A stretch of DNA of 64,000 nucleotides from Squalus acanthias. Taxonomy: Eukaryota. The stretch covers positions 39,930,001 through 39,994,000 of the forward strand of contig CM059432.1 in NCBI GenBank assembly GCA_030390025.1, in the 5' to 3' direction. The notes under the pieces are model-generated. The model made no database searches. It was not told the DNA's origin and worked only from the letters and a program-made list of their open reading frames with translations. The position numbers and the translations under genes were made by a program. Positions 22,030 through 64,000 of this stretch are shown here, piece by piece; positions within the stretch are counted from its first letter, which is position 1; each line of letters begins with the position of its first letter.

Positions 22030-22982
22030 ATGGCAGCACAGCTCGGCCCTGTGGTATGCTCCTCCTGCGCTATGTGGGAAATCAGGGACACTTCCTGTGT
22101 CCCTGACTCCCATGTGTGCAGGAAGTGTATCCAGCTGCAGCTACTGGCAGACCGCATTGCGGCACTGGAGCTGTGAATGGATGCATACTGGAGCATTCGC
22201 GATGCTGAGGACGTCGTGGATATCACGTTTAATGAGTTGGTCACACCGCAGGTAAAGGCTGCACAGGCAGGAAGGGAATGGGTGACCACCAGGCAGAGTA
22301 GTAGGCGCAGGCAGGTAGTGCAGGGGTCCCCTGTGGCCATCCCCCTCTCAAACAGATATACCACTTTGGATATTGTTGAGGGGGATGGCTTATCGGGGTA
22401 ATGCAGCAGCAACCAACTTCCTGGCACCATGGGTGGTTCTGCTGCACAGGAGGGGAGGAAAAAGAGCGGGAGAGCTATAGTGATAGGGGATTCTATTGTA
22501 AGGGGAATAGATAGGCGTTTCTGCGGCCACAAACGAGACTCCAGGATGGTATGTTGCCTCCCTGGTGCAAGGGTCAAGGTTGTCTCGGAGCGGCTGCAGG
22601 GCATTCTGGAGGGGGAGGGTGAACAGCCAGTTGTCGTGGTGCATATAGGTACCAACGATATAGGTAAAAAATGGGATGAGGTCCTAAAAGCTGAATATAG
22701 GGAGTTAGGAGGTAAATTAAAAAATAGAACCTCAAAGGTAGTAATCTCAGGATTGCTACCAGTGCCTGCGTACTAGTCAGAGTAGAAATAGAAGGATATA
22801 TCAGATGAATACATGGCTAGAAGAATGGTGCAAGGGGGACGGATTCAAATTCCTGGGACATTGGAACCGGTTCTGGGGGAGGTGGGACCAGTACAAACTG
22901 GACGGTTTGCACCTGGGCAGGACCGGGACCGATGTCCTAGGGGGAGTGTTTGCTGGTGCTGTTGGGGAGGGTTTAAACTAAA
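22030..22982 (+). pseudogene. CR1 ORF1 (Cys zinc-knuckle/leucine zipper plus SGNH esterase), disrupted
   Basis: MAAQLGPVVCSSCAMW...HVCRKC; IGDSIVRG, HIGTND, DGLH; in-frame stops (e.g. 22174-22176) and frameshifts. Confidence 0.85.
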
Positions 22983-23159
22983 ATGGCAGGGGGTTGGGAA
23001 CCTGTGCAAGGAGACAGAGGAAAGGGAAGCAAGGATAGAAACACAAGACAGGAAGGAGAAAAGCAAAAGTGGAAGGCAGAGAAATCAAGGGTGTAAATCA
23101 AACATGGCCACAGTAAACAATAATTCTAAATGGTCTAAGAGTGTTAAAAAAACAAGCCT

Positions 23160-25959
23160 GAAGGCTCTGTGTCTTAAAGCATTCATAATAAGGTGGATGA
23201 ATTAGCTGTGCAAATAGATGTAAATGGATATGATATAATTGGGATTACGGAGACATGGCTCCAGGGTGACCAAGGCTGGGAATTCAACATCCAGGGGTAT
23301 TCAATATTCAGGAAGGACAGGCAAAAAGGAAAAGGAGGTGGGGTAGCATTGCTGGTTAAAGAGGAGATAAACACAATAGTATGGAAGGGTATTAGTTCTG
23401 ATGATGTGGAATCTGTATGGGTAGAGCTGCGAAATACCAAGGGGCAGAAAACATTAGTGGGAGTTGTATACAGACCCCCAAACAGTAATGCTGAGGTTGG
23501 GGATGGCATTAAACGGGAAATTAGAGATGCATGCAATAAGGGCACAGCAGTTATCATGGGTGACTTTAATCTACATATAGATTGGGCTGACCAAATTAGT
23601 AACAATACTGTGGAGGAGGAATTCCTAGAGTGTATACGGGATGGTTTCCTGGACCAATATGTCGAGGAACCAACTAGAGATCAGGCCATCTTAGACTGAG
23701 TATTATGTAATGAGAAAGGATTAATTAGCAATCTTGTTGTGCGAGGACCCTTGGGGAGGAGCGATCATAATATGATAGAATTCTTCATTAAGATGGAGAG
23801 TGATGTAGTTGACTCAGAGACTAGGGTCCTGAATTTAAATAAAGGAAACTACGATGGTATGAGGTGTGAGTTGGCTAGAATGGATTGGGGAACGTTACTT
23901 AAAGGGTTGACGGTGGATAGGCAATGGCAAACATTTAAAGATTGCATGGATGAACTACAGAATTTGTTCATCCCTGTTTGGCATAAAAATAAAACAAAAA
24001 ATGTGACACAACCGTGGCTAACAAGGGAAATTAGGGATAGCATAAGATCCAAGGAGAGGACATATAAATTGGCCAGAAAAAAGCAGCAATCCTGAGGATT
24101 GGGAGCAGTTTAGGATTCAGCAAAGGAGAACAAAGGGATTAATTAAGAGGGGGAAAATAGAGTATGAGAGTAAGCTTTCAGGGAACATAAAAACTGACTG
24201 TAAAAGCTTCTGTAGATATGTGAAGAGAAAAAGATTGGTGAAGTCAAGCGTAGGTCCCTTGCAGTCAGAATCAGGGGAATTTATAATGGGGAACAAAGAA
24301 ATGGCAGACCAATTAAATACATACTTTGGTTCTGTCTTCACAAAGGAGGACACAAATAACCTCCCAGAGATGTCGGGGAACATAGGGTCTAATGAGAGGG
24401 AGGAATTGAATGAAATCACTATTTGTAGGGAAATGGTGTTAGGGAAATTGATGGGATTGAAGGCTGATAAATCCCCAGGGCCTGATAATCTACATCCTAG
24501 GGTACTTAAGGAAGTGGCCCTAGAAATAGTAGATGCATTGCTGGTCATCTTCCAAAATTCTATAGACTCTGGAACAGTTCCCATGGATTGGAGGGTAGCT
24601 AATGTAACCCCACTATTTAAAAAAGGTGGTAGAGAGAAAATGGGGAATTATAGACCAGTAAGCCTGACATCGGTAGTGGGGAAAATGCTAGAGTCCATTA
24701 TAAAAGATGTAATAGCAGAGCACTTGGAAAACAGTGACAGGATCGGACAAAGTCAACATGGATTTACAAAAGGTAAATCATGCTTGACTAATCTACTGGA
24801 ATTTTTTGAGGATGTAACTGGTAGAATAGATAAGGGGGAACCAGTGGATGTGGTGTATTTGGACTTTCAGAAGACTTTCGATAAGGTCCCGCATAAGAGA
24901 TTAGCGTGCAAAGTTAAAGCACATGGGATTGGGGGTAAGGTACTGTCTTGAATAGAAAACTGGTTGGCAGACAGGAAGCAAAGAGTTGGAATAAACGGGT
25001 CTTTTTCCGAGTGGCAGGCAGTGACTAGTGGGGTACCGCAGGGATTGGTGCTAGGACCCCAGTTATTCACAATATATATTAATGATCTAGACGAGGGAAC
25101 TAGATGTGATATCTCCAAGTTTGCAGACGACACAAAGTTGGGTGGGCGTGTGTGCTGTGAGGAGGATGCAGAGAAACTCCAGTATGATTTGGACAGGTTG
25201 GGTGATTGGGCAGATGCATGGCAGATGCAGTATGATGTGGATAAATGCGAGGTTATCCACTTTGGTGGCAAAAACAGGAAGGCAGATTATTATCTGAACG
25301 GCAATAGATTGGGAAAAGGGGAAGTGCAACAAGACCTGGGTGTCCTTGTGCACCAGTCGCTGAAGGTAAGCATGCAGGTGCAGCAGGCGGTTAAGAAGGC
25401 AAATAGTATGTTGGCCTTCATAGCGAGAGGATTCAAGTACAGGAGCAAGGATATCTTGCTGCAGTTGTACAGGGCCTTGGTGAGACCACACCTCGAGTAT
25501 TGTGTGCAGTTTTGGTCGCCTTATCTGAGGAAGGATGTTTTTGCCATGGAGGGAGTGCAGCGAAGATTCACCAGACTGATACCTGGGATGGCTGGAATGA
25601 CATATGAAGAGAGATTGGGTCAATTGGGCTTGTATTCGCTAGAGTTTAGAAGAATGAGAGGGGATCTCATTGAAACTTATAAAATTCTAACAGGACTAGA
25701 CAGACTAGATGCAGGAAGGATGTTCCCAATGGTGGGGGAGTCCAGAACCAAGGGTCACAGTCTAAGGATAGGGGTTAAGCCATTTAGGACTGAGATGAGG
25801 AGGAATTTCTTCACCCAGAGAGTGGTGAACCTGTGGAATTCTCTACCACAGAAGACAGTTGAGGCCAATTCATTAAATATATTCAAGAAGGAGTTAGATA
25901 TATTTCTTAAGGCTAAGGGGATCAAGGGATATGGGGAGAAAGCAGGGACAGGGTACTGA
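23160..25959 (+). pseudogene. CR1 ORF2 (endonuclease plus reverse transcriptase), disrupted
   Basis: ORF pieces 23193-23699, 23739-24095, 24220-24951 and 24964-25959; TGA in place of Trp at 23697 and 24949; a frameshift near 24080. Confidence 0.92.
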
Positions 25960-29064: not shown

Positions 29065-30063
29065 ATGGTGGATGAATTGCAGCAAACCAGCTGCAGCATC
29101 TGCTGCTGCACCTTCATGGGCAAAATGCTAACTGTCATCTTCATGATCTTACTGACCCTCGCTATTCTGCTTGGCAACCTGGTGACTTTGGTCGTGTTCT
29201 TAGGCTTCAAGCGCGCCTGCACCCCTCAGGGCTACCTGAAGGTTTCTCTGGCAGTGGCCGATCTGGCTGTTGGCGTTCTCGTGGTCCCATTTTCCGTCTA
29301 CGCGGAGATACTCCTCCTGCTGAAAAAATCGTCTACAGACTGGGAGGGGGACACTTTATTTAGCGACTATTTCCAGCCCTGCACGGTGATTGGGACGGTC
29401 TACGCCGGCTGCACCCTGGTCTCCATCAGCACCATCTTTCTACTGACCCTCGAAAGAAGCATCGCCATCCTGAAGCCCCTGCACAAAGAGGCGGTGATTA
29501 CCAGAAAGAGAACATTGTCCCTGATTGGCATCTCCTGGTTTGCCAGTTTCTTCCTAGCCGTGTCCCCTCTGATATTTGGCGAGGGGATCGTGCTCCAATA
29601 TAACCCCTGCAGTCGAATGTGTAACTTCGCCTTGGTAGCCGGGAAGTTGCCTCAGGATGGCTGGAAAATTCTGCTGCTTTTCCCAGCTTTTGATTTCACA
29701 CTCCTGGGAGGGACGGTGGCGATAAACATTTTATCTTTCAGCAGTATTCGGCAGTACTCCAAACAGAGGAAACTGATGGCGAAAAGCAAGTTGTCCCGCC
29801 CATCGTTTTCCGACATCAAAGCTGCAAAAATCATCGCGACTCTGACTCTCGCCTTCACAGCTTCCTTCAGCCCCATCGCGGTGTTCGTGGTGGGAAACGT
29901 CCTGGGATATCAATGGTGTGACTTCTCCTTTTTCGCCTTTTGGATCCTGACTTCAAACAGTTGCTGGAACGTGATCATTTACAGCGTTAGAGATCAGAAA
30001 TTCCGGCAACGGGCGCTGGCGTTGTTGGCCCTCTCCAAACCGGCCGCCTCCTCGGACAGCTAG
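29065..30063 (+). CDS. Orphan class A (rhodopsin-like) GPCR, single coding exon, about 332 aa from the first in-frame ATG
   Basis: Seven hydrophobic segments; TM1 GN, TM2 LAVADL, TM3 Cys and ERS (DRY position), TM4 W, ECL2 Cys, TM6 FTASFSP, TM7 NSCWNVIIY, helix 8 DQKFR; intact frame in a repeat-free, CpG-retaining island. The ORF-track start at 29035 is a TTG. Confidence 0.92.
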   Translation: MVDELQQTSCSICCCTFMGKMLTVIFMILLTLAILLGNLVTLVVFLGFKRACTPQGYLKVSLAVADLAVGVLVVPFSVYAEILLLLKKSSTDWEGDTLFSDYFQPCTVIGTVYAGCTLVSISTIFLLTLERSIAILKPLHKEAVITRKRTLSLIGISWFASFFLAVSPLIFGEGIVLQYNPCSRMCNFALVAGKLPQDGWKILLLFPAFDFTLLGGTVAINILSFSSIRQYSKQRKLMAKSKLSRPSFSDIKAAKIIATLTLAFTASFSPIAVFVVGNVLGYQWCDFSFFAFWILTSNSCWNVIIYSVRDQKFRQRALALLALSKPAASSDS

Positions 30064-43004: not shown

Positions 43005-43222
43005 CAAGTATGTCAATTCAAACTTAAACAATTAATTTGTTATATTCTAAACAATTTATGTCAGTTCAAACTAAATCATTAATTCGTTATATTTCAATTC
43101 AAACTAAATAATTATGTCGATTCAAACTAAACAATTATGTCGATTCAAACTAAACAATTATGTCGATTCAAACTAAACCATTAATTCGTTATATTCTTAT
43201 CTCTGTCAGTTACAAACTAAAA
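43005..43222. repeat. AT-rich minisatellite, about 23-bp unit aattatgtcgattcaaactaaac with longer degenerate units
   Basis: Three near-exact units at about 43110-43178 plus degenerate flanking copies. Confidence 0.85.
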
Positions 43223-44328: not shown

Positions 44329-45837
44329 GGGGAAAAATTCAGTTGGTTAGCACCTCCCGTTAGTGCCAGCAGCTGGCGCTAATGGGGCGTTGATGCAGTA
44401 GCGCCGGGGCGAGGCAAATCCAGCGATGCACAGCAAATCCGGACCCGCCGTTGCGCCGCCAGTACGAGGTACCGCTGGGGACTTCAACGCCAGGCAGATC
44501 ATGACGTCAGTGAGCGTCCAACGCTCACTGGGCGCCCGATCTGAAAAATTGATTTTCGCCACTTACCTTTACGCCTCGACCAGACAGCGACAGGGAGAGC
44601 GGGCGCACAGCTGACGGAAGCTGGCTCCAGCGACATTATTTAAAGGCAACAGCATTAATCACTTGCAGCTGTCAGGGCAGGTTAGTTTCAGTGGCTTCTT
44701 GTCAGTTTCAGCCAGTGGAGCAGTTTGTATGATTAACTTCAAGCTTCCTTTTTTATCAGCAGTCTTCTGGCAAGTGCAAAGTGGCTACATTTATTGTTCA
44801 AAGATTCAAACTGCTACCCTTGGCAATATTAATGGGGGCTGTACTGGCATGCCACCTCGCCCTCCAGGATCTATGGCGGAGGGAACGTAGGCAGCCAGAA
44901 ATACAGGAACATGTGCACAGAGGGATGAGGAGGGACATCTGGGCTCTCACCAGGAGGCCTTACCCTCCGAGGGTATTCTGACAGCACTTCACCTACCTTC
45001 AATTAAGCGAGGAGCAGTGTATTAGATGGCTCCACATCACCAAGGTGCTGGTCACAGAACTCTGCCATCTCCTCCAAACAGATCTCCAGCCTCACAGCAG
45101 GATGACTAAAACCCCAAATCCCATTTGCTCACCACATGCCCATCCCTGTGTCATGCCATATCACAGCATTCTCCTGGGTGCAAAGGTGAAATGAGAGAGA
45201 CCACAAAATATTGCAAACTCCATTAATAAATTTATGCATACACATATCACATTCATTCTAATAACTAATGATCCTTGTGACTGCCATAATTGAATAGCTG
45301 TCATTGTGTGCAAGGCGTGAGATGTGGGTGTGAGTGTTGGTAGGTAGAGATTGTTGGTGGGTGAGCGCTGGGGGTGTGGTGCTTTGGGCAGTGTGTGAAG
45401 CCGGTGATACAGATGGTGGTATGTAGCATTTGTTGAAGCATTCAATCACCCTGATCACAACTGAGGTGGATCTGCCATGAGCACACCTGCTTCAGTCCTT
45501 CGGCTCCTTCTCCTTGTTGTGCTTTTCCTTGCTGAGGCAGCTGCACAGCCAGCAATGCTGAGAATGAGGTGCTGCAGTATCTATGAACCTTCCCATTAAG
45601 TACTGGGAAAAGCCTGTGGCAATGATGAGTTGAGATTAGACTACACCCAATATTGGTCCACCCTTTGAGTGTAATGCCACTGAGCTAGGCCTTTAAGACT
45701 TGATTTAGTGCCCCAATCATTTCTTTGAGCAGTGAGAATGAATTTTGCGTGCAGTCTAAAGCATTAGCGCCTGGTGCTAATTCTCAAACTTTTCTGAAGA
45801 TACCAGCCATTCCTGGGCTATAATGAATTTCTAGCCC
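44329..45837. mobile_element. Older internally deleted Harbinger related to the 50078-54414 family
   Basis: Ends GGGGAAAAATTCAGTTGG / GAATTTCTAGCCC; transposase N-terminus MGAVL...RRPYPPRVF*...LSEEQC...LVTELCHLLQTDLQP on +. Confidence 0.85.
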
Positions 45838-48525: not shown

Positions 48526-50435
48526 ACTATGAGAATAGAAGAAAAGGTGAGTTAAGACTAGAGGTGGAGATTAGGATGCCAAGGTTGGGTTCCAAGAAAA
48601 GAGTTTCAGCATAAACTGTGGAAAAGAAGAGTGCAGGTTGAATTGAGGAGGGAGGAAATATAAGATGTTGAATTGAGGAAGGAAATGGAGAAAAGTACCA
48701 GCATGAATGGAGAGGGTTGGAGGAGGATAGAGAATCTCTGTGAAAAGTTGGATGCAGTACAGTGTCTCTGTGAATTAGACCCAGAGGGTGTTTAGTGCCA
48801 TGGTGAACTGGGGAGGTGGCGGGGGTGGGGGGCGAGGAGGGTTGCATGTAGAAGAGTGACTGGTAATATAACTTTTGGGAAAGTGATGATCTGGTTGGTC
48901 TGTTGAAAATTCAAGGCAATTTTTTCAATTTTTTAAGATTAAAAATCTTTTAATTATGAAATATAATTGTGTTTAAAATGAACCAGAAGGTATAATTTTA
49001 ATGTAAAAATTCAGAGGAGCATGATCCCAGACACCCACTGAAAATGCACAATCAGTGCTTCAACATTTGGATTCTTTCTTCAGGCTTTCATGTACTTATT
49101 TTTTTTCTCCCTCCAATGCAAGTGAAGGAATGTCATGCATGCCTACAACTTAAGCTACAAAGCCTGTGTAACTATTTGTTTTCACATTATATAGGCTTAT
49201 AATTGGTGGGGGGGTTGTGTCAGCTTTTTTCGGTCAGCTTTTGCTAGTTTTCTAGTTGGTACACATGAATAAGTGACATTTGGGTTTATTCCTACTCAAC
49301 AGACACACCAAAGCATCACTTCCCCAAAAGCTATCTGAACAAAACTCTCCCTTCTCCGAGTTCTCTTCTCCATCTCTAACTCCCAACAGTTTCTCTTCCC
49401 TCTAGCTCCCTCCCCATTTTACAGAGGCACCCAGTTCACAGCAACAATCTATCCCATTCAACCCTCCCCCCTCTAGTCCACAAAGACATTCTATATCATT
49501 TTGTCACTGTGGCCTCAGCTGCCGCTTTTACCTGATGCTGCTGCTTTGCTCTGGAAGCAGACTCTGTACTGCAGGCAATCTATTGGGAGACCAGGAATTC
49601 CCCAGCTGCACACCGCAGGACAGACACTGCCCCAAAGCAGCAAATCAGCCATTTGAACACGAGCTTGATGATTTGCTATCCCAGGGATAAACAGTGTATA
49701 GATTTGTATACAGTGTATACACCTGGTTACGCTCCTCTTTAGAAATGACTTAAAGGGGATGTGAATATTGAAGGGGATGTGAATATTGAAGGCATGAGAT
49801 TTATTTTCTAAGCGGTTGGCGCATACCCCTCTAGAAATTTTTTTTTTTAACATGTTGGGCTGGATATTCCGATGCCTATGGGTGAGTACGCACTGTGTAC
49901 ACACCCGTAGGGACATCAGAAATGCCGGTTTTAGGCGTGCACAGCGCATGTGCTGAAAACCGGCATTTCCGATCTGTCAAGAATGCTCTTGACAGATCGC
50001 ACGCCTGCCCTGGAGAAGGGCCTCTGCAGGCGGATAGTTCCGCTTTCTGGAGACCCTCCGCCCGCTGAAAACCCTTAGGGGTAGAAATTAGGTCGCGCCC
50101 CATTTGGGGCGCAAATATCGTCCGCGCGCAAATATTAGCGCCTGGCGCTAATTATCGGCACTGACAGGAAACTTCACTTTTACCGCCCCGGGAGGTGAGT
50201 GGAGCGCTAAATTAGGCGCTGCACACCTCTCTTAAGGCGCAAAGGCCTAGGAGTGAGGCGCTACCTCAGCGCACGAGCGCAGCGCAGCTGCTGCCAGTTA
50301 GCGAGGGAACACAGACACACTGGCGCCGGACACTTCTTAAAGCGGGGGGGGGCCACTTGCTCCCCAGCCACACCCTGCTCATTGCAGCCTTGAATCTCAG
50401 CCTGGAGAGACCTGTAATCCATTTTGCTGCCAAGC

Positions 50436-52453
50436 ATGGAGAGGGTGAGAGAACGCGCTCATCGCTTCACCGAGCGGGCCTTGGATGCTCTGGTTGGCGC
50501 AGTGGAGCGCAGACGATGCATGCTGTTCCCGGAGAGTGGCAGGAGGCCTTTGCCACGCGAGTTCAGAAGAGTGTGGAGGGAGGTGGCTCAGAGCGTCTCC
50601 TCCAGGAGCATGGTGCCCAGGACCCATGTTCAGTGCCGCAAAAAATTCAACGACCTCACTCGGGTCGTCAGGGTGAGTGGCTTTTTCTCAATACCTCTCC
50701 ATCCCTCCATCTCAACCTCACTATATGGCCAGAGGGTCTTAAAACTCCAATGCACAACACTCATGCAACACCTATGGCCCTTTCATCAAACACACACACA
50801 CATTCCACACTTTGCATACAGTAAGGGCTATTCACCTATGGGAGGCACATCAGGCAAGACCATGGCTGCATATTGTAAGGGCTATTCACCTATGGGAGGC
50901 ACATCAGGCAAGACCATGGCTGCATATTGTAAGGGCTATTCACCTATGGGAGGCACATCAGGCAAGACCATGGCTGCATATTGTAAGGGCTATTCACCTA
51001 TGGGAGGCACATCAGGCAAGACCATGGCTGTATATTTACTCAGATGCTGTCCTTTTTCTTGCAGGCTAAGTTGGCTCATAATCGGAGACAGCAGCAACGG
51101 ACGGGTGGAGGGCGGCTTCAGCTGCAACCCCTCAGCGATCTGGAGGAGCGCGTCCACAGGATTGTGGCAAGCCGGGTGATCGGTCCCGTCGCCACTGGGG
51201 ACGCCGACCCCGTTGTGGACAGCAATGGTAAGGTCATCACCTTTTTGTCCTCTGTCCTTCCACTTGTCCCTCACAATACCAGCCTTTGACACTTTCAATC
51301 CAACTTGCTAACTCGCTGCACTTATTCCTCCCTTACTGCCACCCTGTCCTCACGCTAAAGCCACTCTTGTACCTCCCTGCTTTCAGATGGTGATTCACCA
51401 GCTGAGGAGATGGTCCCTGAAGCTGCCACTGGGAGTGATGCTGCAGCTGAGGAGGAAGAGGAAGCCGGAGCATCAGTGCCACCCTCTCCCGAGGAAGCCC
51501 ATGGCCACACTGGGAACACGCCTTCCCCGGAGGGGAGCAGGGGGGAAGGGGCTGATGATGGTGAAGCTCCAGGACCCAGCGGGCTGCAGCAACGCCATTG
51601 GGGGGGGAGGGAAGAACGGGGGAGCAGGGGGGAAGGGGCTGATGATGGTGAAGCTCCAGGACCCAGCGGGCTGCAGCAACGCCATGGGGGGGGGAGGGAA
51701 GAACGGGAGCCTTCTCCCCAGAGGGAGAGTATGCCAGACACTCCTAATGCAATGGACGCAGAGGAGGAGCGGCTGATTGCAGAAATGAACAGCCAGGCGG
51801 TGGGCATGCACACTGAGCTCATGGGTGCAGTGGGAAGGGTGCCCGAATGCATTGAGGCACTGGCAAGGAGTGTGGAGCACTTCGCTGTAGCACAGGCGGA
51901 TGCCACACTAACGCTTAGTGCTGCAATTCAGTCACTGGCTGCCAGGAACCCATCTGAGACTGCTCTCATGCAGACTCAGATTGAGGCCACGCGAGCACTG
52001 ACTGCTGCCATCCTCGATGGTTCGTGCACATGTCCCCGGGGCTGTCACCGCGCCGCAGCAGGCCAGCAATCTGTTCTCCGGCAAATTGCTCCGGATGCTG
52101 AAGTGCTGCCCCGTGGGAGTGCCAGTGTGTCGGGCGAGCAGGGAGTTGCTGTCCTCTCTCACGATGACAGCATTCCTGCTGCCAACACTGTCACTTCTCC
52201 ACTGCACTTGCCACCGCCTGTAGGACAGACTGCTGCCGCCCATGCAGAGTTGGTGCAGTCTGCAGCCGGGCCCTCCAGGCCCAGAAGTGGTCGAGGCCGT
52301 CCTTCAGGGGCATCTGCAGTGTCAGGGTCTGACGAGCAGCAGCCTTCCACCAGCCTTGCTGCAGCCACTGAGGTCCCATTACGGAGGAGCAGTAGGGTTA
52401 GAAGGGGGGAAGTGCGCAAGGGAAGGAGATCACCCTCGAAGGGCAAAAAGTAG
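50436..52453 (+). CDS. Harbinger Myb/SANT-like DNA-binding protein; exons 50436-50672, 51065-51227, 51387-52453; 488 aa
   Basis: Trihelix-type RFTERALDALV...FP...VWREVA...RTHVQCRKKFNDL; canonical GTGAGT/GCAG and GTAAGG/TCAG sites with matching phases (0, 1) give one open frame; QRTGGG in exon 2; basic C-terminal NLS-like LRRSSRVRR...KGKK. Confidence 0.88.
50821..51036. repeat. Four tandem 54-bp repeats in intron 1 of the Myb-like gene
   Basis: gtaagggctattcacctatgggaggcacatcaggcaagaccatggctgcatatt at 50821, 50875, 50929 and 50983. Confidence 0.97.
51532..51706 (+). repeat. In-frame 87-bp tandem duplication in exon 3
   Basis: GSRGEGADDGEAPGPSGLQQRH(W/G)GGREER occurs twice. Confidence 0.93.
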
Positions 52454-52747
52454 GAGGTGTGCCAAAATGCTGGTCATTTTTTTATTAAAGGCCGAGGTTC
52501 ATGGCCCAACTTTTGTTTAGTGTTTTGGACATTATCTCCAGGTTGTGAGAACCAGTTATGTTATTGACTGTTTTTTTGTGTTTATTTCTATGAGTTTGTC
52601 ATGAGGAATTGACACACACAGAGTTTGTACAATAAATAAGTCTCTGTATTCAAAATATACATGGCTGGTGGTTGGAATTATTGGTGCCTTGGCCGGCTTA
52701 GGGGTTGCGTGCTGGGTTGATTCGTGTTTGTAGCAATGGCAGGGGCC

Positions 52748-53908
52748 CTAGAAGCGGCTTGCTATTAGTCGTTGACGGACGGCCCTTGCAGTTTGACCAT
52801 TGTGGGCCGCCCTCCTGCCTTGGTGCTGCTGCTGATCATCGTCCTCGTCCTGTTCCTCCTCTTCCTCCTCCTCCTCTTGTGGTGCTGCAAGGCCTGGTGG
52901 CATTGGCTGCGTCCTGAGGATTGCCATGTTGTGCAACATGCAGCACACGACTACGAATTTCGAAACTTGCTCAGGCGAGTACTGCAGGGCTCCTCCGGAA
53001 TGGTCCAGACAGCGGAATCGTTGTTTGAGCACGCCGATTGTGCACTCAATAATGTTCCTGGTTGCTTGTTGGCTTTCCTGGTACCGCAGCTCAGCAGGGG
53101 TGTTTGGCGCACGGAGCAGTGTCATCAGCCAGGTGCTCAATGCGTACCCCTTGTCCCCCAGAAGCCAACCAACTGGCTGATGCGGTGCCTCGAAAATTTC
53201 TGCCACAGTACTCTGGCGCAGGATGAAAGCATCGTGGCAGCTGCCCGGATAGTGGGCATTGACAGCGAGAATCACCTGTCTGTGGTCACAGACCAACTGC
53301 ACATTCAAGGAATGGAACCCCTTTCTGTTCCGGAACTCCTCTGCATTCTCTCGCGGAGCACGCAAAGCCACATGCATGCAGTCAATGGCGCCCTGCACCA
53401 TGGGGAAGCCCGCTACCCTCGCAAAGCCCATAGCACGGTCATGCTGCTTGTCTGGGGTCATAGGGAAGGAGATGAAGTCTCGTCTCCTTGTGAAGAGGGC
53501 ATTGGTGACCTGCCGGATGCAGCGATGCACCGCAAACTGGGAGATATTGGCGAGGTCCCCAACAGCAGCTTGGAATGAGCCAGTGGCGTAGAAGTTCAAA
53601 GCCACTGTGACCTTCACTGCCACCGACAGAGACGTCCTGGACCTCAGCTGAGGCTGCAGATCTGGCTGCAGCAGGTGGCAGAGCTCAGTGACCACCTCCT
53701 TGCTGAATCGCAGCCTTCGCAAACACAGCTCCTCGGACATGTGGATGTAGGAGAGCTGTTCACGATATACCCTGGGAGGGTAAGCTCTCCTGTACATGCG
53801 CCTGATGGCCCTCCTCCGTCTGGCCATCATTGCCACTCTCTGTCTGCGTCTCACTATCCTCCGATTGAGCTGGAGCAGGACGACGCCCCCAATCATTGCA
53901 GCCCCCAT
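52748..53908 (-). CDS. Harbinger (HARBI1-like, DDE) transposase, 386 aa, open frame
   Basis: RLRFSKE, VALNFYATGSFQ, GAIDC.H, NRKGFHSLNVQLVCD, PGSCHDAFIL, WLLGDKGY, RNIIE.TIGVLKQRFRCL, CCMLHN, acidic tail. Confidence 0.95.
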   Translation of the reverse strand: MGAAMIGGVVLLQLNRRIVRRRQRVAMMARRRRAIRRMYRRAYPPRVYREQLSYIHMSEELCLRRLRFSKEVVTELCHLLQPDLQPQLRSRTSLSVAVKVTVALNFYATGSFQAAVGDLANISQFAVHRCIRQVTNALFTRRRDFISFPMTPDKQHDRAMGFARVAGFPMVQGAIDCMHVALRAPRENAEEFRNRKGFHSLNVQLVCDHRQVILAVNAHYPGSCHDAFILRQSTVAEIFEAPHQPVGWLLGDKGYALSTWLMTLLRAPNTPAELRYQESQQATRNIIECTIGVLKQRFRCLDHSGGALQYSPEQVSKFVVVCCMLHNMAILRTQPMPPGLAAPQEEEEEEEEQDEDDDQQQHQGRRAAHNGQTARAVRQRLIASRF

Positions 53909-54009
53909 ATTCTCTTTGCCAGAAAAGTAATGAGGTACAGCAACTAAAGTAGCAGCAAAGTTAGGATGAACTAGGCAAAACTACCTCACAAAGCGTTGAG
54001 TCAATGTAG

Positions 54010-54012
<3 letters not shown>

Positions 54013-54044
<32 letters not shown>
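54013..54044. repeat. (CT)n/(GA)n microsatellite in the transposase 5' region
   Basis: About 15 TC units; shorter in the 893-bp relatives. Confidence 0.9.
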
Positions 54045-54046
<2 letters not shown>

Positions 54047-55605
54047 AACGAGTGGTGCATAAATGTCGACCACAGAAAAAGACAGGAAGAGGCCCCCTTT
54101 AAATAGCGCCCCCCCCAGCCCCACACCGATTGATAACGTTCCAGTCTTCCGGTCGTTGGAAGCGCCAGGCGGTAAGGCAGGGGGCGCCACTCAATTTCCG
54201 CTCCGGGGCGCCCCAAGGGCGTTGCACCACGGAATGACGTCACAATCTGCGCGCGCAGGTGGTCGCAGCGGTAAGTTTTAGCGCCGCCGCACAATCTCAA
54301 GTTAAGTTCTCGAGCGGCGCAAACAGCGCTGCGCCCGGGCGTTAGCGCCTTAACGCCCCATTAGCGCCCTCTTAAGGCGCTAACGGGAGGCGCAACCAAC
54401 TGAATTTTTACCCCTTAGAATTCTTATGCCTGGTAAAAGCTTTTACCAGGATAAGAGTTGAAAAAAGTTTTTAAAAAATTTTTCACTGATTTATCATTTA
54501 AAAATACTTTAAAAAAGGTAAGTTTATTTTTAGCCCCGTAAAAAACTTTAAATATTTTTTCAAAAAATTAAATTTTTGTTTAAAATATTTAATTTATTGT
54601 AATTTCAACTAATTTTAAAAAGGTGATGGTTTTTTAAAAATGTATTTAAAGTTTTACTATGTTTTTGGGGTGATCTCCATTCATATATTTGACACGTCTA
54701 TCTGTCAAGTGTATGAAGGGAGATTCCCTTCTTCTATTGGCTCCCCATGGCCCACGTAATTCCAGGGACGCTTGCGAACTGCCTGCGCCTCTGGGATACG
54801 TAGGCCCCGTGCACTTGGAGTTTGGAGAGGCCCAGGATTGGAAGTGTAGGCACCTCGGGAGCCCTCAGGTAAGTGCGTAGATTTTTCCAGATCGGAGGAC
54901 TCCGCCCGCGGGAGGCCTGCGATCGGAAAATATGGCTCGTTATTTGGTACAACTTCCAGTATCTTTGCCTTTCTAGTTGAATATAATAAATCCTGGAAGG
55001 GTTATAGATACTTTAAATATAAAAATAAAGATAATTGTTCAGACTTGAAGAAACGTTACCAGGGAACTTCAGGTACATCATGGCCCAGAATTTCCTCGGA
55101 GCGGTTCCCAATCTGCCACCCTAACTTTGCCGGATGTGTGGCGGAAAATCTGTTTACCTGTGAAAATAGCAATCCTGCTGCATGACTGGCAAAGTTCGAG
55201 CGGTGGAGTGAGAGCAGCTCCAAGGAAACCCCTGGCCCATGTTTATTTGCACCTGAAAGATTTTGCAACAGGCAGTTGCAATAGTCCCAACCGATAGCGC
55301 AGTCTATGTTCATAAGAGATGTGGTTCACTACCACATCCATCTCTGTCCAGGACCCACGACATTACAGAGACAGGCAAAAGGTTACCTGGACTGAGGGTT
55401 TGCTGACTGACCTATCTTGCATTTAAAAAAAATAACTTTATGTAGCTTCAGGCGCAATAAATATGAGTCAATAATATCAAAACAAAATCTTAGAAACAAG
55501 TTCACACAGAGAGGTTCATTTATTTTTCTTTTAGATACTGATCGATCTGTTTGGCATTTCAAACATTTTCTGTTTATAAAACCTTAAAACATGAGGCTAT
55601 AAATT

Positions 55606-55950
55606 GCAAAAGCAAAATACTGCAGATGCTGGAAATCTGGAATAAAAACAAAAATGCTGGAAACACTCAGCAGATCAGGCAGCATCTGTGGAGAGAGAAA
55701 CGGAGTTAATGGGGGCAATTTTAACCTAACCAGGCTGTCGGTAAACTGACAGGATCGGGTGTAACACTGGTTTTACAGCCCGCATGATTTTACTCTCCAC
55801 TGGAGTCAAGGCAGGGTGTAAAACCGGCGTTCCACCCAATCCCGTGGGATTCCCGCCCAGTGAGTTGGGTTAAAATTACCCCCAATGTTTCAGGTTGATG
55901 ACTTTTCATCAGAAGGTTCTGACGAAAGGTCATCAACCTGAACCATTAAG
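55606..55950. mobile_element. Penelope-type hairpin repeat interrupted by a MITE
   Basis: gcaaaatactgcagatgctggaaatctg...gagttaa|MITE|tgtttcaggttgatgac.tttcatcagaa..ttctgacgaaaggtcatcaacctgaa. Confidence 0.75.
55711..55883. mobile_element. 173-bp palindromic Harbinger-type MITE
   Basis: TIRs GGGGGCAATTTTAACC / GGTTAAAATTACCCCC; TSD AAT. Confidence 0.88.
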
Positions 55951-57439
55951 GCTATTAATTACTAGTGGCAAAAATAACCGCATAACCCCCCCGAGAAGTT
56001 AATTAAAACAACAAATGGAGAGATGTCATAGGCATTAAATGTTCATTCACCGTTATCACCGACAGACATTTCTACCCTATAGAGCTCATTTGACTCTGTC
56101 AGAAGGGTTTATTTTCCACGCATTACAAAAATTAAAATATAATTGCAATGCACAAAAATGTGGTTTGTAGGAAGACACAATACTAACAGCTAAATACTGT
56201 GCTCTCAGATAGCCCTAACTGACTTACTTCAGTCTAGGGTAACAATATATTATAATTTTATTATCAAGGCTACGCCTCACATTTTTCCTGTTAACTGTGG
56301 TGCAGGCCCTCTGCCCAGTTACTGCATGGTAACAAAGACACTCCCACCACATGTGTAAACATACTGCTTTCAAAGTTATGGAACATAATCGGCGACAGTG
56401 TGCACATACAAACACCGCATTACACATCACAGTAGTACATTTATTAAAATTTATTGCTATTCCAACCCCTCTCTCTATTTCAGTTCCAAACCAATGCAAT
56501 TTCACAAGTGTGCTGACAGGAAGGCTTAAATATAGCCAGTTTATTCATTTGCACCAAGGAGCATCTTCTTCCTCTCAGAAAAGCAGGTGCAACTAACGTT
56601 GGCGAAAAATAAACCTTCTCACAAGACAACAGCTGGGCATTCCCCAGAAAATTCACTTGAGGAAAATTAAAAGTTCATAAGTGCTGCATTTTAGCAAACT
56701 AAGCGTTATATATTATTTCTTTGGGGGTAAACACTATAAAAAACATTCCTGTAACTGTGCCTTTCAGAAACTAGCAACTCATTGAAAATTTTTATGTCTC
56801 TAGCTCATGAACAATATATAATATACAACACTTGATTTGACACAATGCAGTGGGATAAAGTAAGATGTGATTGATTGTTTCTGACAGGCTCCAGATCTTC
56901 CCTTGAAGTAACCTCAGTGGCTCTGACAGCCTGCAGTTCTGCCTTGCAACTGATCTGATCGTCTGATATGGACAACTGCTAATCCCACTGAAGAAACCTG
57001 TTTTTTTGTGTGAAGTGTGAGCAAGTCGACTCCTGGGTTGAAGTGCTGTCAGCTGCAAACACTGACAGTTAGCTTTCAAGAGTAGTTTTAGTGCACCATA
57101 ATGTAAGCTTCAGAAAGCACACAGTGCAAGAATATGCTTTCTTGACGGTTACAAATGAACAAAACCTTTAACTCCCATTTAACACACTGTCTGTGCACAA
57201 AGAATAATTTCACCGAGTGAGTAATTAATATAATGAGTATATTTAAATTAAGTCCAATTAGTCTGACCTATCAATAATTTATCCCGAATTGTGTTTAGGA
57301 TTGTACATAAAGTTTTTGGATTAAGGAAACAAGTCTGTTCTCTAATTGGTGCATCCAAAACCACTACAATTAGCATAATTTTGACTTCTTTATTCTTAAT
57401 AGCATATTAAATGTATTCACAAGATAAATGCCTTTTGAG

Positions 57440-58869
57440 TTCCATTGTTTAAAAAGGGAGAAAGGGATAGACCGAGTAATTGCATGCCAGTCAGCCTAAC
57501 CTCGTGGTGGGCAAATTGTTGCCAAAAATTCTGAGGGACAGTATTAATCGTCATTTAGAAAGGCACGGATTAATCAAGGACAGTCAGCATGGATTTGTTA
57601 AGGGAAATCATGTCTGACTAACTTGATTGAATTTTTTGAGGAGGTAACAGGGAGGGTCGATGAGGGTAGTGCGTTTGATGTAGTCTACATGGATTTTAGC
57701 AAGGCTTTTGACAAGGTCCCACATGGCGGAGTGGTCAGTAAAGTAAAAGCCCATGGGATCCAAGGGAAAGTGGCATGTTGGATCCAAAACTGGCTCAGTG
57801 GCAGGAAGCAAAGGGTAATGGTCAACGGGTGTTTTTGTGACTGGAGGCTGTTTCCATTGGGGTTCCGCAGGGCTCAGTACTAGATCCCTTGCTTTTTGTG
57901 GTATATATCAACTATTTAGACTTCAATGTAGGAGGCATGATAAAGAAGTTTGCAGATGATACAAAATTAGCCATGTGGTTGATAGTGAGGAAGAAAGCTG
58001 TAGACTGCAGGAAGATATCAATGGACTGGTCAGGTGGGCAGAAAAATGGTAAATGGAATTCACTCCGGAGAAGTGTGAGGTAATGCATTTGCGGAGGGCT
58101 AACAAGGCAAGGGAATACACAATAAATGGTAGGATACTGAGAAGTGTAGAGGAATAGAGGGGCCATGGAGTGCGTGTCCACAGATCCCTGAAGGCAGCAG
58201 GACAGGTAGATAAGGTGGTTAAGAAGGCATATGGGATACTTTCCTTTATTAGCCGAAACATAGAATATAAAAGCAGAGAGGTTAAGCTAGAACTGTATAA
58301 AACACTAGTTAGGCAACAGCTAGAGTATTGAGTACAGTTCTGGTCATCATATTACAGGAAAGATGTGATTGCACTAGAGAGGGTACAGAGGAGATTTACG
58401 AGAACGTTGCCAGGACTGGAGAATTTTAGCCATGAGGAAAGATTGGATAGGCTGGGGTTGTTTACTTTGGAACAGAGGAGCCTGAGGGGAGATTTAATTG
58501 AGGTGTATAAAATTATGAGGGGCCTAGACAGAGTAGATAGGAAGGACCAATTTCCCTTAGCAGAGAGGTCAATAACCACGGGGCATAGCTTTAAAGTAAT
58601 TGGTAGAAGGATTAGAGGGGAGTTGAGGAGTACTTTTTTAACCCAGAGGGTGGTGGGGGTCTGGAACTCACTGCCTCAAAAGGGTGGTAGAGGCAGAAAC
58701 CCTCATCGCATTTAAAAAGTACTTGGATATGCACTTGAAGTGCCGTAACCTGCAAGGCTATGGACCAAGAGCTGGAAAGTGGGATTAGGCTGGATAGCTC
58801 TTTTTCGACTGGCACAGACACGATGGGCTGAATGGCCTCCTTCTGTGCCATAAACTTCTATGATTCTAT
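57440..58869 (+). mobile_element. 5'-truncated CR1 LINE
   Basis: QHGFVKGKSCLTNLIEF, YMDFSKAFDKVPH, KFADD, RGDLIEVYKIM; (ttctatga) tail into which the MITE at 58870 inserted. Confidence 0.9.
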
Positions 58870-59762
58870 GGGGTAAAAATTCACTTGGTTGCGCCACCCG
58901 TTAGCGCCTTAAGTGGGCGCTAATGGGGCGCAAAGCCGCTAACACCCGGGCGCAGCGATGTTTGCGCCGCTCGAGAACTTAACTTGAGATTGTGCGGCGG
59001 CGCTAAAACTTACCGCTGCGACCACCTGCGCGCGCAGATTGTGACGTCATTCCATGGTGCAACGCCCTTGGGGCGCCCCGTAGCGGAAATTGAGTGGCTC
59101 CCCCTGCCTTACCGCCTGGCGCTTCCAACGACCAGAAGACTGGAACGCTATCAATCGCTGTGGGGCTGGGGGGGGCGCTATTTAAAGGGGGCCTCTTCCT
59201 GTCTTTTATTGTTGGTGGCATTTTTGAACTACGCATTCTGAGAGAGAGAGGGAGAGACTTCTGGAGAGATTCAACGTTGTGTGAAGGAGTTTTGGGTACT
59301 GAGCAGCACTTTGCAGGTTCATTTTGATTTGCCATTCCTTGTATCGATTTAGCAGAGACCGTGGGAGCTGCACACTGAGCTCTTTGCCTGGTGCTCTCCA
59401 TTGTTCTTTCCAGCACATTTGATGTGCAAGTCTCTCCAGGCCGAGATTCAAGGCAGCAATGAACAGGATGTGGATGGAAAGCAAGATTAACCATCCCCTT
59501 TAAGAACTGGCCCGTGCCATTGTGTGTGTGTTCCATTGCTGACTGACATTACATGAGCTTCACCAGCGCTCCGAGTTAGCGCCTCACTGCTCGGCCTTTG
59601 CGCCTTAAGAGAGGTGTGCAGCGCCTGCTTTAGCGCTCCACTCACCTCCCGGGGCGGTAAAAGTGAAGTTTCCCGTCAGTGCCGATAATTAGCGCCAGGC
59701 GCTAATATTTGCGTCCGGACGATATTTGCGCCCCAAATGGGGCGCGACCTAATTTCTACCCC
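58870..59762. mobile_element. Young 893-bp non-autonomous Harbinger, second copy
   Basis: TIRs GGGGTAAAAATT / AATTTCTACCCC; TSD TAT; about 17 substitutions and no indels relative to 35400-36292 (counted by eye). Confidence 0.97.
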
Positions 59763-59849
59763 TATGAGTTGTAAGGAAAAGTTTATTTTGTATTTATCCT
59801 AATTTACATAGGCTTGTTAAGTCTAATTAGAATATGCATCAATCTTTTA

Positions 59850-60373
59850 TCCCTCATAAAATCATAAAATCTTACATTTGGCCCATCATGCCTGTGCCAC
59901 CTCTTTGGAAGGCTATCCAATTAGTACCACATTCCTGTTCTTTCCCCATAGTCCAAAAGTTTTCAAGTATATATCAATTGTCTTTTGAAAGTTAATACTG
60001 AATCTGCTTCCACCACCCTTTCAGGCAATGTATTCCAGATCATAACAACTCGCTGCGTAAAAACATTCTGCTCATCTCCCCTTTGGTTCTTTTGCGAATT
60101 ACCTTAAATCTGTGTCCTCTGGTTACCGACCCACCTGCCAGTGGAAACAGCTTCTCCTTATTTACTCTTTCAAAAACCCCTCATAATTTTGAATACCTCT
60201 ATTAACTCCCCCCCTCAACAGTCACTGCTCTAAGGAGAACAATACCAGCTTCTCCAGTCTCTCCACATAACTGAAGTCTTTCATCCCTGGTATCAATCTG
60301 GTAGATCTCCACTGCACTCTCTCCAAGGCCTTGACATACTTCCTAAAGTGTGATGCCCAGAATTGGACACAAT
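59850..60373 (-). mobile_element. CR1 3' fragment
   Basis: Reverse complement of CR1 RT C-terminus and 3' UTR; truncated by the element starting at 60374. Confidence 0.8.
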
Positions 60374-63300
60374 GGCCCCGATATTAACTGCGAGGTGTGT
60401 TGGGAGCGGGGAGGGGTCCGATATCGCATGGGAAACCCAGAAGCAATTTCAGCGCATCTGTCTGTGGCATTTTAACGTGGCCACCTCATTATCATTTGAC
60501 TTCTAGGTTTGGCATCGAATGCGTGGCAACAGGCGTGGTACAGACCCACGTGACTGGGGCTCCACTCCAGTATTTAAAGGGCCAATCCGGAGATGGTATT
60601 TGGAGGAGTTGGGAGGTTTGGCACAGAGACTGCAATTTCACAATTGATTCAGGACGTCAAAGGCTGCGCCCCGCTTTAATGAAGCCTCACTTAATGTACT
60701 GCTGGGGGCAGTGACGAGCAGGAGAGAGATACTTTTCCCCAGTAACGGGAGAAGAAACCTGCTGCTGCCACAAAGCAGGCGTGGCTGGATGTGGCTGAGG
60801 AGGTCAGCAGCAGGAGCATTGTGCCATGCTCCTGGCTTCAGTGCAGGAAGAGCTTTAATGACCTAACCAGGTCAAGAAAGGTGAGTACAGTTGCACTTTC
60901 ACCTACGTCCTGCTGAGCGCATCACCGCCCTCCATGCCCCCCACCACCCGCCTCCACACTGTGCCTTGTCAAGCCTATTCCATCATATCACTCCTCATAG
61001 CCACTTACTTTCGAAGCGCACCCATCCTTCTCTTTCTATGCACTTCCTCACATTCCTAACTATCCATCCACTGCTGCCACACACCCTCATCATTATACAA
61101 TTTCCTGCCTCTCCCTGATAGTCACCCTCATCAAATGCACTGCATCCATCGCGTGAACACATGCCATTACAGTCACTCATAGGTCTGTTCTTCCCCTGTT
61201 GCGGGAGAAAAGTGCACAAAATACAAGGGTGAGTGAGAGGACCGGAGTTGGTCCTCCACAGATCTCGCAGCTGATAACTGCAGAGCAGCAAGCGCTGGAG
61301 ATCAGTAGCATCTCGGTGTCCCTGGCCATCGAAGATGGCGAGATGTGGACCTCCCTTGGTGACTGATTTCAGCAGCGAGTAAAATATGATCATCTTCATA
61401 ATGATAAGTTGCAACATTCTTACCTTGCCAGTACTAATTCATACCTTTTCTCTTCGCCAGGTCCTTCACGCGTGCAGCAGCAGTCGGTGGACGTTACGGG
61501 CGACGAATCTTCAGGGGAGCTGGTTCCCTCTGAGGGTGCACCGTCCCAGGACTCGTGCTTACCATGTGCCAGCACAGATACTCACACTTCGGTGGGTCCA
61601 GTTAAGACAGATAGTTGGGTTTTCACCTGGTGACTCACACTTCATAAGTGAGCAAGAACAGACAGTGGTGGCAGGGACAGCTTTGGAGAGTCTGCATCGG
61701 AGGGCATAGTCCTTTCCAAGCTCTGCTCAGCTGGACACAGATGCTGTACCCTGGGGGCCGTCGATGAAAAGAATAATAATGATGGGCAGCAGAGAACTGA
61801 CAGGCCTTCCACGCACACCGTCCACGACTGCAGAGAGAAAGGAGGAGTCCACCTCAAGCATGAGTGGGATGATGTTGCAGGTCATTGCGAGGATGTCTTC
61901 TTCCGTGGATAGAGTGGCCAAATCTGTGGAACATCAATCGCGCCAATCAAATGAATCCATGCAGGCCTTGACTGCGGCCGTCCAGACTCTTAATGCCAAC
62001 ATGTCTGGCACCTTAAATAGAATGACAGACACCTTAGCCTAGGCCTTACAGCACGTCACTGATCTGCACCAAACTGCTCTCCATCAGAGTAGTAGGAGTG
62101 AAGTGCAGCTGGCCCATGAGAGTGATGATGGTGAAAGGGGACATGGAAGTGGCGACTCCACTCAAAGCACTCCCACTTCTCAACCGTTGCTGTTTCCTCA
62201 GTTAGTACCCGGCATGCTGCCTTCTATCCCGATGGCCAAGTCAGCCCCTGCACAGCTACAGGTGAAGCATTTTTTGGCAGGTTCCTCACAGGCTTCAAAG
62301 CCCAGAGGTTATTGGCCAAGAGCATCTCAGCATTCAGAGCAGGGGTCTGAGCAGCCTGCCTCTACCTCTGCTCAAGCCACGGGGGTTGCACCACGTAGGA
62401 GCAGTAGGAAAAGAGTAAAGCTTTGTAGTTGCACAAGGGTATGCACATGGGTGTATGAGAAAATGTTACATGTTTTCGTTCTTTAGTAGAACCACATAAA
62501 ATGTATTACTTTGCACCACTTCCCCGTGTTGGCCATTCTTGGTGTTGGGTGGCAACTCGTCGTTTCGGTTGTTTGTTGATGAATGGGAAGACATGAATTG
62601 ACGGGAACCAATGGGGGGATGTGTAAAGGGTGGCTGTTTGGAAGCAGGACTGCTTTGTGTCTGTGGGATTGGCGGGGAGGGAATGACAGTGGCAGTTGGA
62701 TGTGGTTGTTACATGGGTCTAGTGGTGGTAACTAACTGAACCTTACAGCTAGAAGGGAATCCCTGGCATCCCAGGCAGCAATGTGAGCAGCTGGTGCTGC
62801 GATGGGGTCGCCATCTTCCTCCTCCTCCATCTCCTCCTCGGATTCGTCCGCAGACGATGTGTGCTCAGCGCCTTGTTCCTCCTGTGGCTCCAATCCTTGC
62901 TGCTGCGCAATGTGGTGCAGAGCACAGCATACCACGATCATTCTGGAGACACTGGCTGGTGAGAACTGAAAGGCGCCTCCAGATCTGTCCAGGCACCTGA
63001 AGTACATCTTGAGCATGGCGATCACTTGCTCAATGACACATCTGGTTCTCATTGTACTGCTCTTGGGCTTCCTTGGTTGGGTTTCTCACGGGTGTCATCA
63101 GCCAAATATGAAGGGGGTATCCTTTGTCTCCTAGCAGCCATCCCTTAAGTCTCTTTCCAGATCCAAAGAGCCGAGGGAGCTTGGACTGCCACAGGACAAA
63201 AGCATCATGGCAGCTCCTGGGAATCTGGCACACACCTACATAAACCTTTTCTTGTTGTTGCACACCAGCTGCATGTTGATGGAGTGGAACCCCTTGCGGT

Positions 63301-64000
63301 TAACGAATACTCCTGCTTGATCTGGGGTGCGCGGATAGCCATGTGTGTGAAGTCGATGACACACTGCACCTGTGGGCAGCCAGCCAGAGACACAAACCCA
63401 AGCGCCCACTCATTTTAACTGGTGCCATCACAGGCGACGTTGACAAATAGTTGCCAGCCCTGGCAAACAACCCATCAGTGACCTGCCTTATGGATTTGTG
63501 TGCAGCTGACTGGGAGATCCTGGATATGTCTCCAGCAGATCTCAGGAAGGATCTGGAGGCAAAAAAGTTGAGGGCAGTGGTGACTTTCACAGCCATTGGT
63601 AATGCGTGGCCACCAAGTCCAGCAGTGAGCAGGTCTTCGTCTAGGATGCTACAGATGTCGTCCACCACCTGACGTGACGACTTCAGCCTGGGGAAGCACA
63701 GCTCTTCCGAGAGGTCAAGGAAGCTGAGCCTCTGCCTGTACTCCCTGTTACACGGGTAGTGCCTCCTGCCAGCCCAACGCCTCTGCTGCTCCCCTCTATG
63801 CTCACCACCTGCAGGTCTCTCAGGTTGCTGCTGCTGATGATACTCATCTTGATCCTCATCTGAGGTCCAATGCGCCGCCATCCTCATCTGAGGATGTCCA
63901 AACTGTAGAAACTAACCTCTCACCACAAGTACTGTGAACAAACCCTTTCCCAGTGGGAGGTAACAAAGCAGCTGTGAGCACTGGGTATTTATTGCACAAT
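60374..64000. mobile_element. Decayed autonomous-type Harbinger of a different family; right end lies outside the window
   Basis: Left end GGCCCCGATATT; Myb-like gene remnant on + (about 60650-62415, donor AAG|GTGAGT at 60880); frameshifted transposase on -. Confidence 0.88.
62732..63887 (-). pseudogene. Harbinger transposase pseudogene
   Basis: Fragments in four ORFs: ALNFFAS, VIDFTH, SCHDAFVL, WLLGDKGYPL, RCVIEQ.IAMLK..FRCL, CCALH. Confidence 0.9.

Follow-up and report, generated by a model that had tools for sequence, protein, structure and literature searches.

In this study, we analysed a 64,000-nt stretch of the Squalus acanthias genome (assembly GCA_030390025.1, contig CM059432.1, positions 39,930,001 to 39,994,000; hereafter the window, in which all coordinates are given unless otherwise stated) and delimited in it a full-length Harbinger transposon of 4,337 bp at 50078–54414. 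The element belongs to a family that is real, very abundant and unusually intact, with a relaxed target-site duplication (TSD) inside a conserved-looking 15-bp target. We consider it highly probable that this is a two-gene Harbinger family of the Nuwa type whose near-identical copies number about 2,500; its likely mode of movement is cut-and-paste into a loose 15-bp palindrome, and the copy in the window is likely impaired.

A 30-mer internal to the transposase gene has 2,526 exact matches in the genome, compared with 8,592 for the 30 bases at the left end, with no match for the reversed control in either case. The difference leaves some 6,000 elements that share this end but are non-autonomous or members of sister families. 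Two samples of copies were compared. The first consisted of the 39 best other copies and is biased to similarity (36 with both ends in the fetched stretch), while the second took the first 40 pattern matches on one contig, which required an exact 30-mer and is not biased by overall similarity (36 with both ends). Two twins from the first sample and two twins, one internally deleted copy and one wrongly delimited copy from the second were dropped, leaving 35 best copies (the window copy included) and 32 position-ordered copies to be aligned with repeat tracts masked. These 67 copies form a ladder-like tree of 16 old, 9 middle and 42 young members, which diverge from the majority of their own subfamily by 0.58%, 0.51% and 0.37%, respectively; the old and young majorities differ at 70 of 3,760 sites (1.9%). 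The position-ordered sample includes 13 copies with both frames open (of 32) and the best-copy sample 21 (of 35), and 106 of 107 scored protein matches, all best candidates, are stop-free. At a rate of 13 in 40, about 800 copies genome-wide would, by extrapolation, have both frames open. Of the 16 Myb frames that are broken in young copies, 11 are interrupted at two G runs, and some of these breaks may be due to assembly errors. The copy count and the divergence, the first checks proposed in the initial annotation of this DNA, both speak for a recently active family in sequence terms.

The transposase is encoded by an uninterrupted open reading frame (ORF) of 386 amino acids and retains the GAID, HDA, GDKGY and IIE motifs, as the initial annotation had read from the letters alone. 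The acidic residues D176, D226, D252 and E288 are all present, each being the commonest residue at its position among 120 homologues. A model built with 89 sequences was confident (predicted local distance difference test score [pLDDT] 90.3, predicted template modelling score 0.84) and placed D176 in a strand and E288 in a helix; the single-sequence fold was unusable (pLDDT 39.8). Comparison of the alignment-based model with the PDB gave no match at E≤0.001, only weak rows for DDE transposases and integrases, and a PDB sequence search with the transposase found nothing relevant, so that neither sequence nor fold search found a Harbinger transposase among solved structures.

The second gene, convergent to the first, was predicted to encode a spliceable Myb/SANT partner, and its three exons do join through GT-AG introns into a stop-free protein of 488 amino acids with a Myb DNA-binding domain in exon 1. 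All four splice dinucleotides are kept in 66 of the 67 aligned copies. A homologue search with the Myb protein returned one protein. The copy number of the 54-bp repeat in intron 1 (50813–51036) and of the 87-bp in-frame repeat in exon 3 (51532–51707) varies among young copies, in which the element measures about 4.1–4.6 kb and the Myb protein 459, 488 or 517 amino acids.

None of the sequencing runs that contain the element is registered as RNA, and splicing was examined in four runs from two studies that we guessed to be RNA. In contigs of all four, intron 2 is skipped exactly (159 nt, GT..AG ends, shorter flank 19–25 nt); the skip is missing from the 15 joints with most support in the DNA runs, where a further 136 joints fall outside the list. 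Intron 1 is supported indirectly, through protein homology: a predicted sawshark protein (P0007) aligns without a gap over residues 5–113, spanning the exon 1/2 junction after residue 79. Of the two introns that the initial annotation had proposed to confirm in RNA, the second has contig support from probable RNA runs, whereas the support for the first comes from protein homology. Some features of these runs speak against reading them as a clean record of expression from the family. Removal of intron 1 is not among the eight joints listed for the probable RNA runs, and contigs of these runs extend from exon 1 into intron 1; moreover, most of the longer contigs listed are 2–7% divergent from the window copy and several read through introns, so that much of the signal may come from older relatives, read-through or DNA. 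Six other short skips in these runs have non-GT-AG ends and low depth.

Both ends of the element were confirmed. The terminal inverted repeats (TIRs) match at 11 of 12 positions and are flanked on each side by TTA, the predicted TSD. The element interrupts an older host repeat of about 0.7–0.8 kb, whose best paralogues are 93–94% identical (6–7% divergent); it is absent from the matching position in all 11 paralogues examined, and because eight of these empty sites carry one TTA (the remaining three are shifted or mutated there), the 3-bp duplication is confirmed. The ends are rich in CpG, as had been claimed, with observed/expected ratios of 1.06 and 1.10 against 0.42 for the window. Their apparent lack of decay has another meaning than that of protected ends, a possibility we discarded: in the 67 copies, the ends had decayed per CpG site (1.5% and 1.2%) as much as the Myb exons (1.1–1.8%), and the low level of decay therefore reflects youth. 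An 8-mer motif resembling TTAGCGCC occurs 15 times, always in the outermost 190 bp on the left or 315 bp on the right and never in the interior, a number reached in none of 200 shuffles (maximum 14) even though the best motif was picked afresh in every shuffle. The coordinates of these features are collected in Table 1.

Table 1. Features of the full-length Harbinger element, its insertion site and its short relatives in the window
Feature	Position	Strand	Basis
Older host repeat split by the element (limits approximate)	49850–54940		Paralogue comparison
Left TSD, TTA	50075–50077		One TTA at 8 of the 11 empty sites in paralogues of the host repeat
Left TIR, 12 bp, GGGG start	50078–50089	+	11/12 match to right end
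Left subterminal array, 7 copies of TTAGCGCC-like motif	50108–50264		Motif enrichment, shuffles
Myb/SANT exon 1, 79 amino acids, DNA-binding domain	50436–50672	+	PF13873, E=4.7e-9
Intron 1, GT-AG, with 54-bp tandem repeat of variable copy number	50673–51064	+	P0007 alignment across junction
Myb/SANT exon 2	51065–51227	+	Spliced open frame
Intron 2, GT-AG, 159 bp	51228–51386	+	Skip in contigs of probable RNA runs
Myb/SANT exon 3, with acidic region, 87-bp repeat containing two G runs and basic C-terminus	51387–52453	+	No Pfam match
Spacer of convergent genes, poly(A)-signal hexamers on both strands	52454–52747		Sequence inspection
DDE transposase, 386 amino acids, intronless	52748–53908	-	ORF open from first ATG; PF13359, E=4.9e-36
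Right subterminal array, 8 copies of TTAGCGCC-like motif	54103–54383		Motif enrichment, shuffles
Right TIR	54403–54414	-	11/12 match to left end
Right TSD, TTA	54415–54417		Same trinucleotide as left side
893-bp non-autonomous relative, TSD AAA	35400–36292	-	98.4% to majority of 30 best copies
893-bp non-autonomous relative, TSD TAT, in 3' tail of a long interspersed nuclear element (LINE)	58870–59762	-	Sequence comparison

To define the target, 98 insertions were delimited (35 best long, 30 short and 33 position-ordered), 88 of which have a perfect 3-bp TSD; merging identical contexts left 83 distinct sites. The TTA of the window copy proved not to be a family-wide rule: the centre is WWW at 60 of the 83 sites, TWA at 18, TNA at 20, ANT at 4 and CWG at none, with ATA/TAT and AAA/TTT together making up 38. 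Around it lies a 15-bp palindrome, ARASWC-WWW-GWSTYT, whose symmetrised profile reads A (71%), R (88%), A (92%), S, W, C (66%), then WWW and the mirror image. The preference is strongest at -5/+5, where A and T occur jointly at 70 of 83 sites; C before and G after the TSD reach 66% each when symmetrised and occur together at 38 sites. The target profiles of long and short elements resemble each other. In paralogous host repeats, several insertions occupy the same position, in two cases with one long and one short element; as these repeats (81–92% identical) are more diverged than the elements inserted in them, the data suggest that such a site was used more than once independently. Of the 88 insertions, 12 lie in the tail of 8-bp repeats of a LINE with a reverse transcriptase domain, which we take to be CR1. 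Strict targeting of this tail was rejected: with the window's case excluded, the excess is modest (11/87 versus 36/679, 2.6-fold, p=0.015), and the background is rough, being drawn from the flanks of other repeats.

The element has the DDE_Tnp_4-type transposase, the Myb/SANT second ORF, the short TIRs and the 3-bp TSD that characterize the broad-sense Harbinger superfamily (PHIS), and its ORF, lying inside a multi-copy mobile element, differs from domesticated HARBI1 genes, which are single-copy and immobile and have no TIRs. Within PHIS, groups are distinguished by their TSD in the available part of Han et al. (2015; PMC4482050), and the target data of the shark family fit none of them: neither TWA of the PIF/Harbinger group (18/83), nor CWG of NuwaI (0/83), nor C/TNA/G of NuwaII (TNA at 20/83, flanking C and G at 38/83), nor ANT of Pangu (4/83) describes its sites. 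The structural traits of NuwaI are nevertheless all there (TIRs that start with GGG and are 12–61 bp long, two ORFs, a length of about 4.5 kb). By analogy, the element would work like Harbinger3_DR of zebrafish, which a table row of the same source equates with NuwaI-2_DRer, yet by the rule given there it is no NuwaI member.

As far as the accessible descriptions go, the element and Harbinger3_DR both combine a DDE_Tnp_4 transposase with a Myb_DNA-bind_5 protein in about 4.2–4.3 kb, and both have 12-bp TIRs, a repeated subterminal motif and a 15-bp palindromic target with similar 6-bp flanks; by eye, about 47 of 92 DDE-block residues of the family majority are identical. The zebrafish target consensus is AAACAC-CWG-GTCTTT in the available text of PMC3016246, and our sites match its 12 flank letters at 7.7 on average against a background of 3.4–3.5. 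The two differ in that the shark TSD is WWW-biased whereas the zebrafish centre is CWG, in copy number (about 2,500 versus 293 listed), in the length of the Myb protein (488 versus 221 amino acids), and in that many shark copies have both frames open while the zebrafish element was reconstructed; activity has been demonstrated for the zebrafish element, whereas the shark family is known from sequence. NuwaII-4_XTro (PMC4482050, section 8 and supplementary file 2, as far as available) shares two ORFs, TIRs starting with GG, C before and G after the TSD and, by eye, about 46 of 92 DDE-block residues; the family departs from the NuwaII group in its low share of TNA and in having its strongest preference at -5/+5. 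The Nuwa-type placement is thus a putative one, with a by-eye identity of about 50% over the DDE blocks to NuwaI-2_DRer and NuwaII-4_XTro. With the canonical PIF/Harbinger elements Ping, Pong and mPing, as the accessible parts of PMC4482050 and PMC13668399 present them, it shares the two proteins, the 3-bp TSD, the short non-autonomous relatives and, in the window copy, the TTA, and it differs in its scarcity of TWA and its extended 15-bp target. The closest database proteins, 120 shark and ray entries labelled 'putative nuclease HARBI1' (P0001–P0120), belong to the same transposase family at no more than 65% identity, and P0007 also spans the Myb exons; these labels come from gene models, not from described transposon families. 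No paper on a shark Harbinger family was among those listed in our literature searches, repeat databases being outside their scope.

The available portions of PMC9710019 and PMC13668399 report that Harbinger systems require two proteins and that the Myb protein binds subterminally, and the former adds that the Harbinger3_DR Myb protein binds both a 9-bp subterminal motif and the transposase; what is available of PMC12637253 and PMC12292965 adds nothing on Harbinger tests. Because of this precedent, the TTAGCGCC-like arrays are likely binding sites of the Myb protein. We propose that the spliced Myb/SANT protein would bind the arrays at both ends and bring the DDE transposase to them, that the transposase would cut at the 12-bp TIRs, and that the element would then be joined into the palindromic target with duplication of its central three bases. 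The family would have spread in successive waves, of which the old, middle and young subfamilies, 1.9% apart from end to end, may be the traces, and inserted copies would decay mostly through CpG transitions and slippage in G runs.

The same proteins likely also serve the 893-bp element, whose 30 best copies differ from their own majority by 0.32% (an internal 30-mer of the copy at 58870–59762 has 38 matches in the genome). Its first 180 bases match the old majority of the full-length element at 177 positions and the young at 173, and its last 340 bases at 330 and 326. The tips are 96–98% identical, but identity falls to 120 of 160 (75%) over bases 181–340 and about 135 central bases are unmatched, by which a direct origin by deletion from this family was ruled out. 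The 893-bp element is instead what deletion has left of an older relative and likely borrows the proteins of this family, cross-mobilization being suggested by the common target profile, the nearly identical tips, the retention of all 15 TTAGCGCC-like motifs and the presence of long and short elements at shared host positions. The earlier suggestion that it could be the donor in a mobilization assay thus remains plausible, although it would not be a cognate one.

The initial annotation had described a recently active family from a slow-evolving lineage. In sequence terms the recency holds, given the abundance of near-identical copies and the 88 perfect TSDs, but the slow shark clock works against it. 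At the epaulette-shark rate of 7e-10 per generation (estimated from five mutations; available part of PMC10587355), a private non-CpG divergence of 0.10% corresponds to about 1.4 million generations (0.7–7.1 million). The family may accordingly be extinct or fully silenced, with a last wave millions of years old, nearly all copies fixed and a fresh look owed to slow shark mutation. An excess of CpG transitions of about 5–11 times over other rare changes, which resembles the pattern of methylated DNA, is in line with this explanation, as is the finding that runs labelled with eight organisms hold at least half of the sampled words. Several null results weigh against our own reading. No empty orthologous allele was seen at this locus, none of the listed contigs of DNA runs X1 and X3, which cover the unique flanks, bridging the site (136 joints fall outside the list), and the genome assembly contains no second haplotype of the locus. 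Nor did comparison of shared with private non-CpG changes (nonsynonymous to synonymous) indicate significant selection on the master lineage overall (42:21 versus 120:44, p=0.33), in the transposase (18:12 versus 42:17, p=0.34) or in Myb exon 3 (20:2 versus 54:19, p=0.14); with Myb exons 1–2 at 4:7 versus 24:8 (p=0.03, uncorrected), the sign of purifying selection in these data is weak. Joints that skip the whole element were discounted as empty alleles, as they have short sides or other letters between them and lie in the high-copy host repeat.

Extinction or complete silencing is the strongest of the alternatives, and we give it real weight, though clearly less than an even chance, for the following reasons. 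Singleton changes in young copies number 0–11 per copy in 3,761 sites, one copy having none, one having one and nine having two, and amount to 0.13% overall. Unique flanks differ between the genome and runs X1 and X3 by 0.24–0.30% (5 in 2,069 and 7 in 2,311 bases). Because the singleton level is about half of this, many insertions would be no older than ordinary alleles and may still be polymorphic. The clock, moreover, was borrowed from another shark. On balance, we regard present-day mobility of the family as about evenly poised. As a separate observation, 20 of the 22 subfamily-shared non-CpG changes in exon 3 alter an amino acid and many cluster at 51912–52011, a possible sign of fast change; the excess over private changes is not significant.

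The 'near-ready system' of the initial annotation describes the family better than the copy in the window. An open Myb frame is combined with no rare transposase change (rare changes were scored in the transposase only) in 13 of the 42 young copies, among which the window copy has the most such changes, three. Only 7 of 3,799 sites separate it from the majority of the 37 best copies, but three of these are CpG transitions that cause missense changes at transposase residues 178, 264 and 289, beside or between the catalytic motifs, and at each residue 36 of the 37 copies differ from it. Among the 120 homologues, T stands at 178 in 81 and P at 264 in 96, while the five commonest residues at 289 do not include C; by eye, Harbinger3_DR has T, P and R at the equivalent positions (PMC4482050, supplementary file 2). 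Each change recurs singly in one or two older copies and no other aligned copy has two, as expected of independent CpG decay after insertion. The transposase of the window copy is therefore likely impaired, and the copy is probably a passenger, still open to mobilization by sister copies. This impairment is not certain, as M occurs at 178 in 17 of the 120 homologues (many of which may be decayed copies) and the acidic catalytic residues are spared by all three changes. That the window copy is itself a competent autonomous element, as its open frames, four acidic residues, intact splice sites and ends, few differences and confident alignment-based fold would allow, seems to us unlikely in the face of three changes at positions kept both in the family and in Harbinger3_DR.

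The low divergence might instead reflect a recent horizontal invasion. Two runs with other organism labels, X11 and X13, when compared with 48800–60600, contain both element types with an identity of about 98%, at low depth and without any unique flank of the locus, and the nearest database transposases are no more than 65% identical. We find this explanation quite improbable, since the top homologues are all from sharks and rays, the genome contains a graded series of older relatives, and trace shark DNA or a low-coverage relative would account for X11 and X13 as well as horizontal transfer. An artefact of assembly or segmental duplication, to which a few copies duplicated with their flanks (L040–L042, L112/L113 and L119/L120, segmental or tandem duplications after insertion) and the many Myb frameshifts in G runs, where assemblies err, might point, is largely refuted and can be practically dismissed, as most copies have their own flanks and TSD (83 distinct sites) and two other DNA runs give single element contigs at depths of about 19,000–25,000 compared with 7–26 for unique flanks.

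Decayed pieces of other Harbinger elements lie at about 62900–63750 (- strand), 44329–44411 and 44982–45101 of the window, including transposase remnants of 34–55% identity and an end with a similar TIR, and elsewhere other Harbinger families are nested in or adjoin family copies (L106, L124, L132 and L068; transposases 45–69% or DNA 70–83% identical). Some 20 kb from the element, at 29068–30063 (+ strand), is an intact single-exon ORF for a class A G protein-coupled receptor (331 amino acids from the chosen first ATG; 7tm_1, E=1.2e-25), which is 91% identical in sawshark, 88% in sevengill shark, 80% in houndshark and 77% in elephant shark. Its orthologues in sharks, bony fish and amphibians bear inconsistent automatic names, and it looks like an orphan receptor; it has LERS at what we take to be the position of the usual DRY. 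Tandem arrays at 189–747 and 43034–43204 have alternating 66/59-bp and 23-bp periods.

In summary, the type of element and its mechanism are already known, databases already hold shark homologues, and activity is a prediction from sequence. The family alone makes up an estimated 0.25–0.3% of the genome (2,526 copies of about 4.2 kb), compared with 0.002–0.14% for all Harbinger-like elements in teleosts according to the accessible part of a 2022 survey (PMC9179366), which records no Harbinger in elephant shark and recommends checking other cartilaginous fish. If the proportion of doubly open copies holds genome-wide, a test of activity needs no reconstruction, and cleaner sister copies, rather than the window copy, are the candidates to be tried for gene delivery with a loosely specific 15-base target. 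A natively active element would offer semi-site-specific delivery ready for use and would lend itself to structural work on the Harbinger transpososome, for which PDB searches found no structure. We tentatively suggest, while holding it to be rather doubtful, that this may be a natively active vertebrate Harbinger, several hundred doubly open copies of which are moving in wild sharks and a clean copy of which would work in vertebrate cells without reconstruction; the palindrome flanks would be common to Harbinger3_DR and the duplicated centre free, so that flank recognition would be a conserved trait of the clade.

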